Shown here: in pieces, positions 191 to 10,642 of the stretch
Numbering within the stretch: the first letter of the stretch is position 1
How the letters are laid out: each line of letters opens with the position of its first letter
From: a virus
Lineage: Duplodnaviria > Heunggongvirae > Uroviricota > Caudoviricetes
Length of the DNA: 13,300 nucleotides
Strand: one strand, 5' to 3'
Virus record (IMG/VR): IMGVR_UViG_2681813205_000017
Span: 1-13,300 of that record
Program-made: the position numbers and the translations under genes
Notes under the pieces: generated by a model
Database searches by the model: none
Told to the model about the DNA's origin: nothing
The model's input: the letters and a program-made list of their open reading frames with translations, nothing else

Positions 191-604
191 TCAGATGGTT
201 TTCAGTATGCGATCGATGTCGCCGTCATCGCCCGGGTTTCTGCCATCGTATGCCATGCCAGCTGATACGGCTTGTGGGCTGTGCATGTCCATAAAGTTTT
301 CAAAGGCTGCGGTAAGCTCTGGTGCAACCTTCGGGCGTTCCTGCTCTATGGTCATGTTCAGGATGTTTTTAGCCGTATCAACATCAATACAAGGCACGTT
401 TGCCATTGCACGTAACAGCGGCTGATAGTCGTCAGATTCATGAAGCGCCATAATCGCATCAGCGCGCGGCTTGTCCTTCTCTTCCAGGCTGTTAAGTTGA
501 TATACGGCCTCGTAGGTTGATAAACCTCTGTCAGCCATTGCCCGCGCTTCGGCTTTAAATTTACTCGCCAGCGGTAGCGTCATGATACTTTCATTCGTTG
601 CCAT
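191..604 (-). CDS. Hypothetical protein, last gene of the capsid operon (137 aa)
   Basis: ATG at 604 preceded by a GGGGG Shine-Dalgarno. Starts 13 nt after the stop of the decoration-like gene and is followed by an intrinsic terminator. The + strand ORF 15..425 overlapping it lacks such context. Confidence 0.6.
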   Translation of the reverse strand: MATNESIMTLPLASKFKAEARAMADRGLSTYEAVYQLNSLEEKDKPRADAIMALHESDDYQPLLRAMANVPCIDVDTAKNILNMTIEQERPKVAPELTAAFENFMDMHSPQAVSAGMAYDGRNPGDDGDIDRILKTI

Positions 605-616
605 CGTTCCCCCTGC

Positions 617-952
617 TTATCGCGCCAGCGGCTGAACGGATACGCCAGAACCCGCAAAGGCGGCGCATTTTTTCGCGTCGGTGTCGGCGCTCTCAGGCCA
701 GTTAACGGCGGCAATATTGAATATCCCCGTCTTGTAGCACTGTGCTGATTTCTGCGTCGACGTGTCCACGGGGTACGAGGTCAGATAAACAGCCTTGCCA
801 GATTCCTGACCATCCCACGGCTTAAACTCGCCATTTTCCGCCAGCATCAGCGGGGTAAATTCCTGAATAACGCCAGCATCAGCAGCAAAATGTACCAGCG
901 TCGTGGATACCTGCTGACTACCTGCAAATAACTCAATGTATGGAGTGTCCAT
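617..952 (-). CDS. Head decoration protein, lambda gpD-like (111 aa)
   Basis: Translation shares recalled gpD motifs (TPLML, WDG, YK-G-F, WPE, KK-AFAG-VSV) and similar length. GGGGGG Shine-Dalgarno 5 nt upstream of the ATG. Immediately downstream of the capsid gene. Confidence 0.7.
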   Translation of the reverse strand: MDTPYIELFAGSQQVSTTLVHFAADAGVIQEFTPLMLAENGEFKPWDGQESGKAVYLTSYPVDTSTQKSAQCYKTGIFNIAAVNWPESADTDAKKCAAFAGSGVSVQPLAR

Positions 953-964
953 AGAATCCCCCCG

Positions 965-2020
965 TTAACCAATTTTGACGATAACAAATTTGCGAATATC
1001 TGCCGGTACCGGCTGCGGTGCGCTGTGCGTCTGCACGTACTCAATCGCCGGATCGCCGTCCTCAATCCAGTTTTTCGGGTAAAACATGTTTTGCGTTGCG
1101 CCCGTTCTGACCGCTTCCTGATCCATAATCGCACCATAGGCCACCAGCCCTTTATTGTTGGTGTTACCCAGGACCAGCAAATCAGGCTCAAGGAAATATT
1201 TTTCGGTGCCGTCGCTGTCAGTGTATTTGCCGGAATAGACGACAAGGGCAATATCGCCCAGATAGCCTTTAAAGCTCACCACTTCACCCAGGTTTTTACA
1301 GGCCAGTTCTGCGGCGGATTCTGAACCACGGGAAAGGTCGTACAGTTCGCGGAATTTTTTAAAGCTGCGTAACGTGCGCCATACTTCAGCGCCCATAATC
1401 ATGACGTTTGCGGGGCAATTGCCCTGATCAGCATAAAGCTCGATGTCATAGATTGGATCGTGTGTTTCTTTATCCAGCTCAGACCATTTTTTACCGTCAG
1501 CCTGTTCTATGATATTGCTTTCCGGGATCTTCCAGTCGATTTCATAGCGTTCTATGCCTTCGCCCTCAATGAGGTTTTTTCCGGTCGTTACCGCATTCAC
1601 CGCCAGCCATTCCACGCGTGCCTTAATGGCGTTTATCTGGCGGCGCATGTTGCCAGTAATCAGGCGCATACGGCGATAGGTAGGATCGTTAAGCTGTGCC
1701 GGATCTTCTCCAGCCATGCGCATGATGGTTTTTGTTGGATCGATTTCGTGTTTGGGTTTCATGTAGCCTGGTTTAATCGTGCTGGTTTCGTACCCTTTAT
1801 CGCGCTGGACCTGACTACCCACCATAGGCGAACAGAACGCTGACATCGTAACCTCTTCAATGTCCAGGGTGTCCAGAATGATGTTCTGGGTGTTGAAGGT
1901 CGCCACGTTCGGGAAAAACAGCGTGGTAAACAGCGGACTGAATTTAAATTCTGCAATATCCCCGCGATTCAGGTACGCGAAAAGCTGGTTAGTGTTAAGT
2001 GCCGTTGCTTTGCCTGCCAT
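965..2020 (-). CDS. Major capsid protein, lambda gpE family (351 aa)
   Basis: Translation aligns along its length with recalled lambda gpE (FKF-PLF, PGYMKPKHE, DPTYRRMR, LRSFK, RGSES, VVYSGKY, LVLGNT, YPKNW, GDPA, SAP). GGAGGTG Shine-Dalgarno; start overlaps the upstream stop (TAATG). Confidence 0.85.
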   Translation of the reverse strand: MAGKATALNTNQLFAYLNRGDIAEFKFSPLFTTLFFPNVATFNTQNIILDTLDIEEVTMSAFCSPMVGSQVQRDKGYETSTIKPGYMKPKHEIDPTKTIMRMAGEDPAQLNDPTYRRMRLITGNMRRQINAIKARVEWLAVNAVTTGKNLIEGEGIERYEIDWKIPESNIIEQADGKKWSELDKETHDPIYDIELYADQGNCPANVMIMGAEVWRTLRSFKKFRELYDLSRGSESAAELACKNLGEVVSFKGYLGDIALVVYSGKYTDSDGTEKYFLEPDLLVLGNTNNKGLVAYGAIMDQEAVRTGATQNMFYPKNWIEDGDPAIEYVQTHSAPQPVPADIRKFVIVKIG

Positions 2021-2435: not shown

Positions 2436-2457
2436 AAAAAAGCCGGATTGCTCCGGC
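2436..2457 (-). terminator. Intrinsic terminator after the 74-aa gene (GCCGGA-GCAA-UCCGGC plus U6)
   Basis: Same module as 163..184 and 2799..2821 but with a GCAA tetraloop; lies 20 bp downstream of the stop at 2478. Confidence 0.7.
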
Positions 2458-2477
2458 TATGTGTGCTGTGTGCTGGC

Positions 2478-2798: not shown

Positions 2799-2821
2799 AA
2801 AAAAAGCCGGATTTCTCCGGC
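2799..2821 (-). terminator. Intrinsic terminator after the PerC-like gene (GCCGGA-GAAA-UCCGGC plus U7)
   Basis: GNRA-tetraloop hairpin plus U-tract on the - strand, 8 bp downstream of the stop at 2829. Confidence 0.7.
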
Positions 2822-2828
2822 TGTTTGA

Positions 2829-3104
2829 TTAGCTGTCCTGGTAATTGCGCCATATTTCATCACCAGCACCATCTATACCCATTTCGGCATAAGTGCGATC
2901 GACTGCCTTTTTCAGGTCTCCGAAATTATCCGGCGGCTCCGGTGCCCTCTGTGCCTTCCTTGAACATTCCAGCCGTCGCATCGTGATGTGATGCCGTTCC
3001 TTGTCTGTCTCCACCAGCTGCATGACTTCACCCCATCGCGCCGCCGCCCTCCGGTAAAAGCCTTTCGCCTCTAGTTCCTCCGCTATGCGGTCATGTACCA
3101 TCGT
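2829..3104 (-). CDS. PerC-family transcriptional regulator (91 aa)
   Basis: N-terminal AEELEAKGFYRRAAARWGEVM matches the recalled PerC/Pch signature (LE-G-WRRAA-RW). The likely start is the ATG at 3104 (GAGGGGG Shine-Dalgarno, 8 nt after the SSB stop) rather than the ORF-track start at 3221, which would overlap ssb by 110 nt. Confidence 0.65.
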   Translation of the reverse strand, partial: TMVHDRIAEELEAKGFYRRAAARWGEVMQLVETDKERHHITMRRLECSRKAQRAPEPPDNFGDLKKAVDRTYAEMGIDGAGDEIWRNYQDS

Positions 3105-3111
3105 CACCCCC

Positions 3112-3522
3112 TCAGAACGAAATATCATCACCGTAAGGGTCATCGCCTCCCGCTGGTGGCTGATTACCCTGTGTGCCTGTGGTTTTGCGTCTGTTCCCGC
3201 CAGGACGTGCCGCACGGGCACTGATTACGCTGTCTGCAATAACCTGATACCCCTGCCGTGTTTCCCCGTTCTGTCCGGTCCACTGGCTTACCTGCATCGT
3301 GCCGGATACGCTGGCAACATCGCCTTTTTGATGTTTAGCCAGGAAATCGGCCTGTTTGCCAAATGCGATAACCGATAACCATAACGTCGCCTGTCCGTCA
3401 TGTGCCTGGCTGCATGGCAACGATACCGCCATACGCGCCAGAGTCATCGGTGTGCCCTTGCTGGTCTGTTTTACCTGCGGGTCGTCCACCAGCCGCCCGT
3501 AAGCGGCTATCTGTGCCGTCAT
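3112..3522 (-). CDS. ssb: Single-stranded DNA-binding protein (136 aa)
   Basis: OB-fold core resembles E. coli SSB (W-x-x-V-x-x-FGK ... KG ... W), followed by a Gly/Gln/Pro-rich linker and an acidic C-terminal tail DDPYGDDISF (E. coli SSB ends DDDIPF). GGAGAGGTG Shine-Dalgarno; ATGA overlap with the upstream gene. Confidence 0.85.
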   Translation of the reverse strand: MTAQIAAYGRLVDDPQVKQTSKGTPMTLARMAVSLPCSQAHDGQATLWLSVIAFGKQADFLAKHQKGDVASVSGTMQVSQWTGQNGETRQGYQVIADSVISARAARPGGNRRKTTGTQGNQPPAGGDDPYGDDISF

Positions 3523-3770
3523 AATTCCACCTCTCCGGTTTTAACGTTGATGGTTGTTACCTGTTCCGCTTCGGCAATCTCCCGTTCTGTCAGCGTGGCA
3601 AAGTTTGCCGCCGCCGTGGTCATGAATGCGCTTATCAGGTCGGGATGTTCCTTCGCGTATCCTTCCCGCGTGTGGCGGTCTATCGTTCTGATTGCCACCT
3701 TTAAGGTGTGCTCAGTCATGTCTAACGCTTTATATTTTGGCTCTGTTCTGTCTCTGCGTTTTTGGGTCAT
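3519..3770 (-). CDS. Hypothetical protein (83 aa from the ATG at 3770; alternative start at 3800 gives 93 aa)
   Basis: ORF translationally coupled to ssb (ATGA overlap). The ATG at 3770 has a GAGAGG ribosome-binding site and avoids overlap with the iterons. Confidence 0.5.
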   Translation of the reverse strand: MTQKRRDRTEPKYKALDMTEHTLKVAIRTIDRHTREGYAKEHPDLISAFMTTAAANFATLTEREIAEAEQVTTINVKTGEVEL

Positions 3771-3782
3771 TTCTCGCAACCT

Positions 3783-3973
3783 CTCACTTTTTCGCCTCAC
3801 TTTTTCAAGCGTCTCACTTCGTCGCAGCTGGGATTTTCGGTTTTTCTATGTGTGTGTTTCATAAGTATTTTTTTACCCCTCACTTTTGAGGATGTATACA
3901 GGTCGAAAAGTGAGGGAGAGCAGGCTAATTTTGGCCCTCTTTCTATCCACCTCGCTTTTGCTCCTCACTTTTA
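3783..3973. repeat. Putative replication origin: six CTCACTT(TT) iterons flanking an AT-rich stretch
   Basis: CTCACTT copies at 3783, 3796, 3813 and 3879, an inverted copy at 3906..3915 (AAAAGTGAGG) and another at 3963, plus a degenerate copy near 3950. AT-rich segment 3836..3876. Lies directly 3' of the helicase gene. Confidence 0.55.
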
Positions 3974-5371
3974 TAGCGGCGCTACATCATCCCCATCGAT
4001 ACGAATAACCCCATCTTTTTCCAGCTTGTACAGCCAGCGCCGGAAGTTTTTCATTTCATACCCCAGCTTTTTCATGTCATCACGTAACAGCGGGATCGTG
4101 CACTTGTCGCCGTTCTGTGTGCGTGAACGGATGCACCCCCATAGCGCGGTATGGTTTTCCGTCTTGTTCCCTGCCTCCTCGATGCGCTCCAGTTCAACAG
4201 GAGGGCGCGGATCATCCACCACCACCAGCGACGTGATTAATTCACCGTCAGCGTCGGTAAAAAGCTCCACCACGCGTAAGTCATATGCGGCTTCTTTGAG
4301 TTCCTCCGCGTCCTTCATTTTGGTGCATGAGATAACCAGCGCTTCGCTTCCTGCGTCCTCCCTGCGTATCCGGTATTCAGCATCCAGCGAAGCACGAAAT
4401 GCACTGGAACCGCGCGCGCCTTTCGTCTCATCCTTGCCGGAATGGTGAACCACCAGCACCGTGGCCCCTGTGCGTCGTTTCAGTTCGTCACAACCACGGA
4501 TAAACGCCCCCATATCACGGGAATCATTTTCATCATTCCCACCAAAGCAACGCGCCAGCGTATCCAGAATAATCATGCGTACAGGTTTACCCGTTTCCCG
4601 CTCCACCTGACGGGCAGCGATAACCATTTCATCAACATCAAGCGGGGCAGCCGGAAAGATGGGGCGGTTTACCAGATACAGATTTTTCACCTGCTCATCG
4701 TGCACAACCTCCCAGGCTTTTACACGACGCGGAACACCTATACCGCCTTCACCAACCACATAGAGAACCGCACCATGTGCAACCCTGCGGCCTCCCCACT
4801 GGCGACCAGTGGCAACATGGCACGCCCACGATCCGGCAAGGAATGATTTATAGGACCCGCTAGCCCCGTATATGCTGCATAGCGATACCGCCGGAATAAT
4901 CCCCTTAACCACGTAATCCAGTTGCGTGTCGTATCCGGTAGATCCAACGCTCATCGGTAGCGTGGTTTTTCGCTGGTGGTTTTTTTCTTCCGCCGGCTCT
5001 TTCCCGCGCACCCGTTCCAGGTATTCGCGCCAGTTCTCCCGCATATGGCTGTGCATCCCTTCGGGGTAATAATTCGCATCAGTTACACCCGCCGCCGCCA
5101 GCTTGTGCGCAATGGCATTAATATTTGATGGCCTGATGTGGCCTGCCTTGTACAGCCGGACACAATAGCGCCCCTCGTCGATGATTCTCAGGTCTGCCAG
5201 TTCATCCAGTTGATCATCAGCCAGCACAACGGGAGGCACATTATCGCCAGCCAGTCGCCCGTCCTGTTCCTGCCACTGTTTCGCATGTGCCCAGGCATCA
5301 CTACCCGCAAAAATAATGACTTCGGTCATCTTGTCGTAAGGCTGTTTTTTTAAGTTCGGTGCGCTTTTCAT
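3971..5371 (-). CDS. Replication initiator / replicative helicase, RecA-fold ATPase (RepA / AAA_25-like), 466 aa
   Basis: Walker A-like GASGSYKS, Walker B-like MIILDTLARCF, and VLVVHHSGKD typical of RepA/DnaB-like helicases of satellites and plasmids. ATGA overlap with the upstream gene; iterons immediately downstream. Confidence 0.75.
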   Translation of the reverse strand: MKSAPNLKKQPYDKMTEVIIFAGSDAWAHAKQWQEQDGRLAGDNVPPVVLADDQLDELADLRIIDEGRYCVRLYKAGHIRPSNINAIAHKLAAAGVTDANYYPEGMHSHMRENWREYLERVRGKEPAEEKNHQRKTTLPMSVGSTGYDTQLDYVVKGIIPAVSLCSIYGASGSYKSFLAGSWACHVATGRQWGGRRVAHGAVLYVVGEGGIGVPRRVKAWEVVHDEQVKNLYLVNRPIFPAAPLDVDEMVIAARQVERETGKPVRMIILDTLARCFGGNDENDSRDMGAFIRGCDELKRRTGATVLVVHHSGKDETKGARGSSAFRASLDAEYRIRREDAGSEALVISCTKMKDAEELKEAAYDLRVVELFTDADGELITSLVVVDDPRPPVELERIEEAGNKTENHTALWGCIRSRTQNGDKCTIPLLRDDMKKLGYEMKNFRRWLYKLEKDGVIRIDGDDVAPL

Positions 5372-6357: not shown

Positions 6358-6577
6358 GTACCCCTCCGCATTTTTTTTCGTTAGAAATAAGCGTTCTTCT
6401 TTCCTGTTCATCGATCAGGAATACGCAGACCTCACCGCTAAGGCGTTTAAGTAAGCCGATGATTGCCCCTGATTCGCTGTCGGTCATCATGCCTGGGTAA
6501 TCCTCTGCCAGTGCGCAAATAACTTCGATTTGGTGGGCGCGTTCTACTGCCTGTTGTAGTGTGATTTCCTGGCTCAT
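6347..6577 (-). CDS. Hypothetical protein (76 aa)
   Basis: ATG at 6577 with a GGGGG ribosome-binding site; ATGA overlap with the candidate upstream ORF. Contains an A8 tract on the coding strand. Confidence 0.55.
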   Translation of the reverse strand: MSQEITLQQAVERAHQIEVICALAEDYPGMMTDSESGAIIGLLKRLSGEVCVFLIDEQERRTLISNEKKCGGVHVQ

Positions 6578-6774
6578 AAGCCTACCCCCTGACGAATACG
6601 GGCAGCGAATACCATCACGCAGCCAGCCGGGGATTGCAGGCGTGCTTCCTGTTCGCTGGTGGCCTCAATGGTAATCACGCGCGGTTGTGCAGTGCTCAGG
6701 GCGATAAAACGCCAAATGTATTTATTCAGGTTGTGCGAGTCCCGCCCTTGCGGGTGTGTGGTATGATTTCTCAT
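6574..6774 (-). CDS. Candidate small ORF (66 aa), putative first gene of the early operon
   Basis: Not listed separately in the ORF track; it is the C-terminal end of the spurious 381-aa ORF. ATG at 6774 with a GAGG ribosome-binding site 6 nt upstream; stop overlaps the next start (ATGA); ~100 nt downstream of the predicted - strand promoter. Confidence 0.4.
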   Translation of the reverse strand: MRNHTTHPQGRDSHNLNKYIWRFIALSTAQPRVITIEATSEQEARLQSPAGCVMVFAARIRQGVGL

Positions 6775-6872
6775 AGCTACCTCGATACTCTCGTTATCGT
6801 TGGTGGTTAGAAGCCCCGTTACTGCTCCTACAGTGCGGGGTTTCGTCGTTTCTGCACCTTGCATTAACAAGG

Positions 6873-6950
6873 TGTAAGTAACTTTATTTATAGGTGGCTT
6901 ACATGTCAATGCTTTTATGTAAGACTTTTTATGTGTATATTGTCTTACAC
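6873..6950. promoter_or_regulatory. Divergent switch region: four TGTAAG / CTTACA operator half-sites overlapping a - strand TTGACA-N17-TAAAGT promoter
   Basis: Half-sites at 6873 (TGTAAG), 6898 (CTTACA), 6919 (TGTAAG) and 6945 (CTTACA), alternating in orientation. On the - strand a perfect -35 TTGACA (complement of 6904..6909) and a -10 TAAAGT (complement of 6881..6886) with a 17-bp spacer. Confidence 0.5.
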
Positions 6951-6970
6951 TTTCATTGAGAGGATTACAG

Positions 6971-7276
6971 ATGGCTACAGGTTCAAAAAACGCAAAATCA
7001 CAATCACTGACAGCTCGGATCCCGCATGATGTTATTGAAGGCATGGAATCCGTAAAACTGGACGGTGAAAGCAACGCCGGATTCATAGTAACCGCCATGC
7101 GCGGTGAAATCGCCCGCCGCCAGGCAGAAGGAAGCGGAGAAAACCTCCTGATTTCTTCGCTCAATGCACTGGCGCAGGTGGAAAAACTCGGAATCAAAGC
7201 CGCCGAGGAGATCGGGCAGCTCGTCACTGTCGCACGTGAAGAACTCCAGCGCCGCAAGACTAAAGAACCAGAGTAA
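6971..7276 (+). CDS. Putative transcriptional regulator, candidate repressor of the early operon (101 aa)
   Basis: ATG at 6971 with a GAGAGGA Shine-Dalgarno. Divergent from the - strand operon and immediately downstream of the operator cluster. Function is inferred from position only. Confidence 0.55.
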   Translation: MATGSKNAKSQSLTARIPHDVIEGMESVKLDGESNAGFIVTAMRGEIARRQAEGSGENLLISSLNALAQVEKLGIKAAEEIGQLVTVAREELQRRKTKEPE

Positions 7277-7318
7277 TCACCATCAGCGCCGTGGTGTAAG
7301 GTATTACGGCGCATTGCT

Positions 7319-7507
7319 ATGCAGGACAACACAATGACCGATAAAGAATTGACCAAAACATTATCACCGGCACGGAAAAGACGGCGCAGAAAGATAGAGC
7401 ATGAATCAGAAAGATTCGCGCCATGTGCTTTTGCCCTTGAGCAATTCCTTAAAGAGTACAGGGAAAAGCGCTCATTGCAGGTATGGCAACGAACTGAACC
7501 AGACTGA
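7319..7507 (+). CDS. Small basic protein (62 aa; alternative start at 7334)
   Basis: ORF following the regulator on the same strand, with a Lys/Arg-rich stretch (ARKRRRRK). Followed by an intrinsic terminator at 7603..7630. Confidence 0.4.
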   Translation: MQDNTMTDKELTKTLSPARKRRRRKIEHESERFAPCAFALEQFLKEYREKRSLQVWQRTEPD

Positions 7508-7602
7508 TAGCATTGCCCACCAGCCTGATAGCGACTATCATTGCCGTTCTTATGTTTGGGATCACACACACAAACGGCGCAGCGGGTTATCTGTTCAGAA
7601 AG

Positions 7603-7630
7603 GCGGCTCCATTTCGGGGCCGCTTTTTTT
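7603..7630 (+). terminator. Intrinsic terminator for the + strand regulator genes
   Basis: GCGGCUCC ... GGGGCCGC stem (one G-U wobble) with a 5-nt loop, followed by seven T. Confidence 0.6.
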
Positions 7631-7776
7631 ATGTCTGAAAAACCCCAATTTTGTTGTTTTTCAGTTTCACCAGGGCGAACGAATCCCCGCCCACGTTCTG
7701 GCGTATATTCAATCTTCATGGTTATAGCTCTGTGTTCAGATGATTGATGTGTGGCGGCTGCGTGCCGCCAGCGTGA

Positions 7777-7965
7777 TTAATGAACTGCCTTGCAGCTATC
7801 CTTCCAGGCCAGAACCTCGGATAAAGACCAGCCAACGGAACGACCGCCAAGTTTACGACGTGATGGGAATTGTCCGGCCTTTTCCAGGCGGTAGCGACAC
7901 GTACGGCTAAGGCCGGTTAGTTTTTCGCATTCTTTTTCACGTATAAACCGATCAGTGCTTAACAC
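7777..7965 (-). CDS. alpA: AlpA-family phage regulator / excisionase-like protein (62 aa from GTG at 7965)
   Basis: CEKLTGLSRTCRYRLEKAGQFP ... GGRSVGWSLSEVLAWK matches the AlpA helix-turn-helix signature. The ORF track starts at a TTG at 8046, but a GTG at 7965 has an AGGGGGG Shine-Dalgarno and gives the typical AlpA length. Confidence 0.75.
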   Translation of the reverse strand: MLSTDRFIREKECEKLTGLSRTCRYRLEKAGQFPSRRKLGGRSVGWSLSEVLAWKDSCKAVH

Positions 7966-8238
7966 TATTGCCCCCCTTTCGTTTCTTAAAGAGTCATCAG
8001 GTGTCTTATTGTGTCGTATTGTTCCCGCTAGAGTGATGAATGGCAAATATTGAGGATGTATGATTTACAGAAAATGAAACAGTAAGAATAAAATCTTTTA
8101 AATTCATGTTAATACAAAGGCATAAAATATTGTTTCATGCCTTTTTTCTCACGCGTTAAAGCGTTATTCGCTAATGTATAAAAAAACAGTCACACAAATA
8201 AAATCAGTCACTTATAAACCTGTGTACTTTTTCGCCTC

Positions 8239-8330: not shown

Positions 8331-9548
8331 TTATTTTCTTCTGGCTGCTGGTAGTGCGGTTACGTTTTCATGTGTTCCCGCCAGTATCCCTAACCGCTCC
8401 ATCCACATATCCAGCGCATTGCGTTTAGCATCCAGATAACGGGAATGATTATAAACTCGCTGCATTCCTGGCATCTGGTGGCCTGTAAGCTGCTCCACGA
8501 CATGCGGATCAACGCCTAAATCGTTCAGCATGGTTGTAAAGGTGCGCCGGATGTCATGCAGTGACCAGTGAGGATGATTAAGCCTCCTGTGCGCTAATCT
8601 TCCATACTGCGATACGCTGGCCTCCTGTTTCACTTCCCCCAGCAATAAGCCCGTGTGCCTGTTCTGCTCCACCAGCTGCGTGACGAACGGCAGTATTGCT
8701 TCCGGTATGGGCCGGAATATTGCCACCTTCGTTTTGCTGTGTTCTTTCGGCACGGTCCAGAGCATTTCGGTAAAATCCCACTCGCTGATCTCCGATAACC
8801 TCAGTTCTACCGTCCGGCATCCGAACACAATCAGGAGGCGGATTAACGCGATGTAGTAGGGGGAGAATATTTTTTTGTCCAGTGCCTGCAATAATTCGCC
8901 CAGTTCTTTGGTGCTTAAGACACGCTCGCTTATATCCGGTTTTTTCCCAACGTCCGCCACACTCATATCATCAAGAACGTTGCTGATTGCATAGCGCCGC
9001 CTCCGGCAGAACTTAAGCGCCTGTTTGCACGTCTGTAGCAAGAATCCGGCAGTAACAGGCGTTCGCTTTGCCACCTGGTCAAAACAGGCCAGCCAGTGCC
9101 GTAGCTCGCATTTATCCAGCGGCATAGCACCAATGTGCTGTATTACGTGATTATTAAGTCGCCTTTTCAGGGCGATATAATCCACGCGGTTTTCCTTTAC
9201 GTAATACTCAAGCCAGTAGGTGAGCGCATCGCCAACCGTTACGGGCTTTAACGCTTCCTGTACGGTGTAATTCATCTCATGACGTGGATTTTTCCCCTCA
9301 GCCAGCCATGTGCGACACTGTGCGGCTTTTTCCCTGGCTGCTTTCAGGCTCAGATCAGGATAACTTCCCAGCTTAATGCGTTCGGGTCGTGTCTCCCTTC
9401 CCGTTCCGGCCCTGTATGTGAAATACCAGGTCAATTTCCCTGATGTTAAATATTTCACGCTCAGGTTTCCGCCATCACTATAAAACGTGTTTTTCTCCGC
9501 TGGCTTACCATGAAGTTTCCTTAGCAAGGTATCGCTCAGTTTGTTCAT
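8331..9548 (-). CDS. int: Tyrosine integrase, P4-like family
   Basis: N-terminal arm-binding-type motif (KPAEKNTFYSDGGNLSVKYL), C-terminal catalytic region with HDIRRT and VYNHSRY (R, H-x-x-R, Y). Start is probably the ATG at 9548 (MNKLSD...); the ORF track uses a GTG at 9560. It is the outermost island gene next to the junction. Confidence 0.85.
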   Translation of the reverse strand: MNKLSDTLLRKLHGKPAEKNTFYSDGGNLSVKYLTSGKLTWYFTYRAGTGRETRPERIKLGSYPDLSLKAAREKAAQCRTWLAEGKNPRHEMNYTVQEALKPVTVGDALTYWLEYYVKENRVDYIALKRRLNNHVIQHIGAMPLDKCELRHWLACFDQVAKRTPVTAGFLLQTCKQALKFCRRRRYAISNVLDDMSVADVGKKPDISERVLSTKELGELLQALDKKIFSPYYIALIRLLIVFGCRTVELRLSEISEWDFTEMLWTVPKEHSKTKVAIFRPIPEAILPFVTQLVEQNRHTGLLLGEVKQEASVSQYGRLAHRRLNHPHWSLHDIRRTFTTMLNDLGVDPHVVEQLTGHQMPGMQRVYNHSRYLDAKRNALDMWMERLGILAGTHENVTALPAARRK

Positions 9549-9584
9549 TGCTCTGCTCACGTTTTACCCCCTCTTTACGAAAAA

Positions 9585-9757: not shown

Positions 9758-10642
9758 GTGCAACACATGGTCCGCTGGCGAGTGCCGCGTGTACTGGCGG
9801 TGTCGATTTTGATGACCATCATCGTGATGGCGATGGTGTTGCTATTAGCTTATCTGGGTTCCGCGCTCAACGAGTTGACGCGGACGTTACCGCAATATCG
9901 CAACTCTATTATGACGCCGCTGCAAGCTCTTGAGCCGTTGTTGCAACGCGTAGGGATTGACGTCTCAGTTGACCAGCTGGCGCATTACATTGATCCGAAC
10001 GCGGCGATGACGTTGCTCACCAACTTATTGACGCAGTTATCTAATGCCATGTCATCAATATTTTTATTGCTGCTGACGGTGCTGTTTATGCTGCTCGAAG
10101 TGCCACAATTGCCCGGAAAATTTCAGCAAATGATGGCGCGTCCGGTTGAAGGGATGGCGGCGATTCAACGTGCAATTGACAGTGTTTCTCATTATCTGGT
10201 GCTGAAAACAGCCATCAGCATCATCACCGGCCTGGTCGCCTGGGCGATGCTCGCCGCACTCGATGTTCGCTTCGCTTTTGTCTGGGGATTGCTGGCCTTT
10301 GCGCTTAATTACATCCCTAATATTGGTTCAGTTCTCGCGGCAATCCCCCCTATCGCTCAGGTACTGGTGTTTAATGGCTTCTACGAAGCGTTGCTGGTGC
10401 TGGCGGGATATCTGCTGATTAATCTGGTCTTCGGCAATATTCTGGAGCCGCGCATCATGGGACGTGGGCTGGGGCTTTCCACATTGGTGGTATTTTTGTC
10501 GTTGATTTTTTGGGGATGGTTGTTAGGACCGGTGGGTATGCTGCTTTCCGTGCCGTTAACAATTATTGTCAAAATTGCGCTTGAACAAACAGCGGGAGGT
10601 CAAAGCATCGCCGTTCTGTTAAGCGATCTCAATAAAGAGTGA
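9758..10642 (+). CDS. tqsA: AI-2 exporter TqsA (YdgG), 5'-truncated by the island insertion (294 codons retained)
   Basis: Translation matches recalled E. coli TqsA from its internal [15 protein letters not shown] segment to the C-terminal SDLNKE. An in-frame TAA at 9731..9733 lies directly upstream and there is no native N-terminus or ribosome-binding site. The ORF-track start is an internal GTG. Confidence 0.8.

Follow-up and report, generated by a model that had tools for sequence, protein, structure and literature searches.

[quoted passage not shown] Our reading, to which we give a probability of roughly 0.72, is that this is an accessory SSB belonging to the replication module of a PICI of the EcCICFT073 type located in tqsA, and that it carries a host-type tail in which a Ser at the penultimate position is most likely a weakening change. 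This Ser replaces the Pro found in most of the family. The replacement is the ssb-113 substitution, which is conditional-lethal in the host and is here a stable natural allele of a satellite SSB; the original prediction had overlooked this.

Fold and family of the island SSB

The gene is an open reading frame running from ATG to TGA. An SSB had been predicted at these coordinates with no strand given, and it is confirmed on the minus strand. The translation ends in ...GGDDPYGDDISF and the C-terminal stretch of the 136-residue product is ...NQPPAGGDDPYGDDISF, which bears out the ending DDPYGDDISF that had been read from it. The protein consists of an OB fold (residues 1–102), a basic Gly/Pro/Gln linker (residues 103–126) and a tip (residues 127–136, DDPYGDDISF), the last two codons of which, TCG TTC (3115–3120, minus strand), encode Ser135 and Phe136.

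The protein belongs to the bacterial SSB family (PF00436/TIGR00621). The Pfam SSB model (PF00436) matches residues 5–99 with an E value of 9.3e-17 and 61.4 bits (cut-off 26), TIGR00621 (ssb) gives 55.9 bits (cut-off 53.95), and the match to PHROG 44, single-strand DNA binding protein, has an E value of 2.9e-38. A sequence search against solved structures finds 26 SSB chains. Alignment with the host protein, which the original prediction had proposed, gives 26% identity over the E. coli SSB OB fold (E = 4e-10). Host residues W54, F60 and W88 align with W48, F54 and W81 of the island SSB, and host W40 with Cys37, so that the equivalent of W40 is not conserved. W48 and F54 hardly vary across the subfamily alignment. 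Among 64 relatives F136 is invariant and D132 nearly invariant.

An AlphaFold2 model of the monomer, calculated with the 64-sequence alignment as input, has a mean pLDDT of 87.6 and values above 90 over residues 1–100. Strands are formed by residues 3–11, 16–19, 25–36, 44–54, 69–82 and 88–100, and a helix by residues 55–62. Residues 1–102 are ordered as a β-barrel with a single α-helix between strands 3 and 4, the arrangement of an OB fold, and the tail (residues 103–136) has no secondary structure and a pLDDT of 59–67. All 50 Foldseek PDB hits among the matches listed are bacterial SSBs. The SSB-like OB fold and linker that had been described from the sequence are thus upheld, the linker being short.

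The island SSB shares with E. coli SSB and SSB-113 the OB fold, a disordered linker, an acidic tip with the I-x-F ending and an aromatic residue at position −6. It is shorter, at 136 residues against 178. The linker of about 24 residues is basic (RRK), whereas that of the host protein has about 55 residues and is rich in Gly, Gln and Pro, and host Asp172 is replaced by Gly.

DNA homologous to the island ssb is found in 1783 of 5426 complete E. coli genomes, and dN/dS between ssb alleles is 0.04–0.20; together these mark it as a real gene rather than a chance frame. Purifying selection acts on it. Two plus-strand ORFs (3085–3378 and 3400–3864) were judged to be chance frames, as they run antisense to conserved, annotated minus-strand genes. 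Many E. coli genomes have this SSB family in two to six copies; records of O157:H7 strains, for example, show one to three places each.

No protein in 50,697 phage records is more than 34% identical to the island SSB, and a recent capture from a coliphage was rejected on this ground. From the sequences sampled the lineage appears to be restricted to PICI and cfPICI satellites. The SSBs of cfPICIs (EcCIEDL933 type) are of the same family, with 82–90% identity, and there too the SSB–PerC pair lies downstream of the replicase. The cfPICIs differ in that all sampled copies of the SSB end in DDIPF, and in that the genes that follow are an HK97-type capsid, a protease and a portal, not those of the lambda E/D type.

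The island and its replication operon

The window corresponds to contig JXWM01000029.1 in the E. coli draft assembly GCA_000932215.1. The island genes are all on the minus strand, in the transcription order integrase, AlpA, small ORFs, a DUF4222 protein, RepA/AAA_25 helicase, 83-residue ORF, ssb, PerC, capsid and decoration. The tyrosine integrase gene (8331–9560, minus strand) adjoins a 3′ fragment of tqsA (9758–10642), with pntB and pntA beyond it. Strain 042 of E. coli has the same island, about 11 kb long, with a tqsA fragment on either side. The interrupted gene, tqsA, is an AI-2 transporter gene; a short 5′ fragment of it is seen at 7341–7484 of L001 (the loci compared are numbered with the prefix L). 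Closely related islands in CFT073 and O157 are found at another site, between roxA and phoQ.

The next gene encodes an AlpA-family regulator (7777–8046, minus strand; PF05930, E = 1.5e-16), a hallmark of Gram-negative PICIs. The stretch from alpA to the early genes is spanned by a minus-strand ORF of 381 residues (6574–7719), rich in Ser, Cys and Arg. The corresponding part of strain 042 is annotated with a pseudogene fragment and, on the opposite strand, a small YlcI/YnfO-family gene (6956–7276 of the window, plus strand); the 381-residue ORF is probably spurious.

The layout of int, alpA, replicase, SSB, PerC and the E/D capsid genes matches the annotated islands of 042, O157 and CFT073, an equivalent island being present in O157:H7. 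Both gene order and sequence match the CFT073 island between roxA and phoQ, which we take to be the model PICI EcCICFT073 from its location, gene content and published map. The window thus holds an integrase, AlpA, a helicase with a candidate origin and a capsid module, all on one strand and within a split target gene, and its island is an EcCICFT073-type Gram-negative PICI inserted in tqsA, islands of this type being about 10–15 kb long. The two islands share the operon order of replicase, small ORF, SSB and PerC, followed by a lambda-E-like capsid and a D-like decoration gene. They differ in the SSB ending (DDISF in the window, DDIPF in EcCICFT073), in the replicase (RepA/AAA_25 helicase in the window, D5_N/DUF5906 primase in EcCICFT073) and in the attachment site. 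The dependence of EcCICFT073 on a helper phage for induction, replication and packaging is known from literature cited in PMC10111431.

The replication operon of the window is laid out as iteron cluster, 83-residue ORF, SSB, PerC and terminator. Upstream of it is the gene for a RepA-family (AAA_25) replicative helicase of 466 residues (3971–5371, minus strand; PF13481, E = 2.4e-43; PHROG 2850), labelled 'helicase RepA family protein' in RefSeq. The heptamer AAGTGAG occurs six times in the 13.3-kb window, five times on the minus strand and once on the plus, and every copy falls in the intergenic region of about 200 bp between the helicase gene and the 83-residue ORF (3783–3970, minus strand). 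This count compares with 1.0 expected, and none of 200 shuffles reaches 6. These iterons, a candidate PICI origin, are probably the replication origin of the island. The assignment is backed by a survey of PICIs in which "Primase, SSB and DUF5906" genes fall in the replication category and colocalise with mapped ori sequences (PMC10111431).

The 83-residue ORF (3519–3770, minus strand) matches PHROG 1231 and has no Pfam match. Its TGA stop overlaps the ATG of ssb as ATGA, which is consistent with translational coupling of the two. A small ORF of 83–85 residues overlaps the ssb start by 4 bases in both PICIs and cfPICIs (L004, L013 and L014–L020), and in the cfPICIs L005–L012 a further ORF of 101 residues lies between the small ORF and ssb. 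The product of the 83-residue ORF could be a partner of the SSB.

The gene for a PerC-family regulator (2829–3101, minus strand; PF06069, E = 1.2e-42) begins 10 bases past the ssb stop, and is read here as 90 residues in keeping with the RefSeq annotation and the L004 gene call. A terminator-like hairpin followed by a T-run (2805–2822, minus strand) comes directly after it, and probably ends the transcription unit of the 83-residue ORF, ssb and PerC, and perhaps also of the helicase. A near-identical hairpin is found at 2441–2458 (minus strand), after a 74-residue ORF (2478–2702); both read AGCCGGAG[A/C]AATCCGGCT and then a T-run. The pair looks like a repeated terminator cassette that divides the replication operon from the capsid module.

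The capsid module contains a lambda-E-type major capsid gene (965–2020, minus strand) and a lambda-D-type decoration gene (617–952, minus strand). The region 191–2020 (minus strand) also encodes a 137-residue protein (PHROG 1999) that is weakly similar to the C-terminal part of a head maturation protease (PHROG 53, positions 494–567 of 583). The equivalent island of strain 042, which is complete, shows no portal or protease gene. The O157 and L013 versions of the island carry an additional Nu1-type small terminase gene. No Rfam family reaches the gathering score within the window.

In the literature searched there is no experiment on any PICI SSB, only its classification as a replication gene, and we therefore infer the part of the SSB in island replication from its position and family. 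On induction by a helper phage the island would excise, and its replicase, here the RepA-like helicase, would open the adjacent iteron-bearing origin. The co-transcribed SSB would then use its OB fold to cover the single strands so exposed.

The C-terminal tip and the ssb-113 substitution

The tip of host SSB is DDDIPF (PMC3159472). In the protein search the endings of 120 cluster representatives include DDPYGDDIPF (64), DDPYGDNIPF (23) and the window ending DDPYGDDISF (5). Taken from these endings, the family tail is DDPYGD[D/N]IPF, which corresponds to a host-type SSB-Ct of aromatic-x-D-D-I-P-F with a terminal Phe carboxylate. Comparing Y-G-D-D-I-P-F of the family with F-D-D-D-I-P-F of the host, the aromatic residue is kept at position −6. 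Over the last six positions the family consensus agrees with the host tip at five and the window tail at four (D, D, I and F).

The SSB of EcCICFT073 (WP_000126698.1; CFT073, between roxA and phoQ) likewise has 136 residues. It ends in DDIPF, and the copies in 042 and O157 end in DDISF, as in the window. The window and CFT073 genes have 20 synonymous and 3 non-synonymous differences (3 of 136 residues; dN/dS 0.04). Within the tail their DNA differs solely by a C-to-T transition that turns CCG (Pro) into TCG (Ser), CCG being the codon of EcCICFT073 and of most family members. The IPF consensus and the near-identical EcCICFT073 SSB with its DDIPF ending indicate that the family keeps a host-type tip in which one residue is unusual in the window; on these comparisons the altered tip is not a family trait. 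The earlier description of the tail as unlike the host DDDIPF is therefore correct in that the two are not identical, but it does not extend to the family.

The wider family was sampled by an exhaustive profile-free search that returned 6435 relatives at E values up to 0.001. Among the matches listed are 60 full-length divergent relatives with a recognisable tip; their penultimate residue is Pro in 36 and otherwise Gly (8), Ala (4), Asn (3), Ser (2) or a further residue (7). By this count the penultimate position is far less constrained in short SSBs than the host literature suggests. Given such variability the Ser allele is unremarkable in a short SSB.

In the host, ssb-113 is the substitution P176S and is temperature-sensitive lethal (PMC3045619, PMC3159472). 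The SSB-113 protein binds ssDNA as before, and the change lowers its binding to χ, ExoI, RecQ, PriA, Topo III, RecG and Pol V (PMC3159472, PMC3045619). The window tip is of the ssb-113 type, having the same Pro-to-Ser change at the penultimate position with D-D-I-x-F otherwise intact. The tail of the family would be expected to bind the partners that host SSB binds, Pol III χ and PriA among them. By analogy with SSB-113 the Pro135-to-Ser change is predicted to give weaker docking of these usual partners and not new binding, and most likely the Ser tip either attenuates host-partner contacts or is neutral. Even the Pro allele may bind host partners with a different affinity, owing to the Gly in place of Asp172 and the short basic linker. 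Since the island SSB is an accessory, island-encoded protein, the Ser allele does not kill the cell; Ser135 would be tolerated given that the cell still has host SSB and that the position varies naturally in the short SSBs of the subfamily.

The lethality of the equivalent host mutation at high temperature (PMC3045619, PMC3159472) could also be taken to mean that Ser135 is a loss-of-function lesion, carried by a gene or island that has fallen out of use. We consider this highly improbable. The ORF is full length in all Ser-allele loci compared (the window, L001, L002 and L013), and in the genome rows listed the matching stretches carry SSB gene annotations. The low dN/dS against CFT073 likewise argues against decay, and the integrase, AlpA, helicase, PerC and capsid ORFs of the window are all open and have strong family matches.

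A different proposal, made in the original prediction, was that the variant tip redirects binding to the island's own helicase or primase in place of host partners. Phage SSBs such as T7 gp2.5 bind their own replication proteins through the acidic tail, in this case the T7 polymerase and helicase (stated in PMC13402713), and ssb lies about 450 bases downstream of the helicase gene, past the iterons and the 83-residue ORF. However, all four combinations of tip and replicase are found. The ISF ending occurs with the RepA/AAA_25 helicase in the window, strain 042 and O157 and with the D5_N/DUF5906 primase in L013; the IPF ending occurs with the AAA_25 helicase in L014 and with the D5_N/DUF5906 primase in CFT073 and 14 other loci (L005–L012 and L015–L020). 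Co-variation of the tip allele with the replicase type was rejected on this basis, and with Ser and Pro each present beside both replicase types nothing indicates co-adaptation of the tip to the island helicase. Apart from this one residue, the Ser and Pro alleles have the same tail. Moreover, the Pro-to-Ser change is known to reduce binding, with no gain of binding reported (PMC3045619, PMC3159472). A redirected tip is thus very unlikely, and attenuated or neutral host-partner contact is the reading we prefer.

Spread of the Ser allele and its possible effects

The two alleles were counted with 35-mers centred on the codon, searched by megablast against the 5426 complete E. coli genomes. A central mismatch blocks the megablast seed, and each 35-mer therefore finds its own allele only. 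The TCG (Ser) 35-mer is found in at least 362 of the 5426 genomes, a number inflated by clonal sampling of O157:H7, O26 and O145, and the CCG (Pro) 35-mer in the same sequence context is found in 229. Most carriers of the Ser allele are STEC (O157:H7, O26 and O145); others are EAEC 042, a fish isolate and some strains of clinical origin. An allele present in so many complete genomes is not a rare error of sequencing or assembly.

The locus L013 (2973–3383) shows how the allele is carried. The 5′ OB-fold part of its ssb is 92–100% identical to the cfPICI allele of L005 (alignment columns 420–720), and its tail, PerC and the DNA beyond are 100% identical to the block of O157 and the window. A recombination breakpoint is therefore placed inside ssb, near the junction of the OB fold and the linker. 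From this pattern the Ser codon belongs to one haplotype that is linked to the downstream PerC block and is moved by recombination, and ssb lies on a boundary between modules at which parts are exchanged between PICIs and cfPICIs. There is no sign of a repeated origin of the Ser allele among the loci compared; recurrent independent origin, which would have been a sign of selection, was rejected, since L013 fits recombination of a single haplotype.

The Ser tip might have been selected, which we regard as unlikely. On this idea an SSB that binds ssDNA and recruits the host partners ExoI, RecQ, PriA and χ poorly would shield satellite ssDNA from host nucleases, or would slow helper or host replication to the benefit of the satellite through a dominant SSB-113-like effect. 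PICIs are known to interfere with their helper phages. The allele is intact in its many carriers across O157:H7, O26, O145, EAEC 042 and others, and the penultimate Pro is absent from 40% of the divergent relatives. The analogy with SSB-113, which keeps wild-type ssDNA binding and loses partner binding (PMC3159472), also speaks for it. The persistence of Ser may reflect positive selection rather than tolerance, two causes that a count inflated by clones does not separate. Against selection, the Ser allele is a single haplotype in tight linkage with a downstream block of 100% identity, which hitch-hiking explains equally well. The very similar EcCICFT073 island and the cfPICIs retain Pro, and there is neither recurrent origin nor co-variation with any island module tested. 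The full claim, that the Ser tip is a selected SSB-113-like allele with which the satellite SSB coats ssDNA but does not recruit ExoI, RecQ, PriA or Pol III χ, is slightly more doubtful again.

It had also been suggested that the variant tip acts on defence systems that sense SSBs, letting the island protein evade, block or trigger them. Such systems exist, namely Retron-Eco8, DARNA, Hna and AbpAB (DARNA: bioRxiv 10.64898/2026.02.22.705581), and the OB fold of the island SSB, being only 26% identical to that of the host, could in principle be read as foreign. Like the island SSB, T7 gp2.5 is a non-host SSB of a mobile element with an acidic C-terminal tail ending in Phe. Its sensing requires the OB fold and the ability to bind ssDNA rather than the tail: for Retron-Eco8, deletion of the C-tail of T7 SSB has no effect on activation and deletion of the OB fold abolishes it (PMC13402713), and for DARNA the terminal Phe is dispensable and an ssDNA-binding mutant loses activation (bioRxiv 10.64898/2026.02.22.705581). 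The tail is thus dispensable in both systems where it was tested, although these results count only indirectly against an effect of the island tip, as the T7 gp2.5-type SSB is unrelated to the island SSB. PADLOC models match none of ten island proteins, the SSB included. We regard an action of the tip on SSB-sensing defences as very unlikely.

The attenuated or neutral tip of an ordinary PICI gene remains the preferred reading. The gene is already annotated in RefSeq, and PICI surveys list SSB as a replication gene. The gain is one of correct classification: the protein is the usual SSB of a phage satellite that is common in E. coli and no re-engineered hub protein. If the Ser allele were after all selected, it would shield satellite intermediates or competitively poison helper or host replication during induction, and would represent a new kind of satellite–helper interference, common in Shiga-toxin-producing E. 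coli. The contrast between the Ser and Pro alleles bears on how far a satellite SSB depends on the partners of host SSB, and the point of interest is that a famed conditional-lethal change of the host protein is carried by a satellite SSB in O157:H7, O26 and O145.
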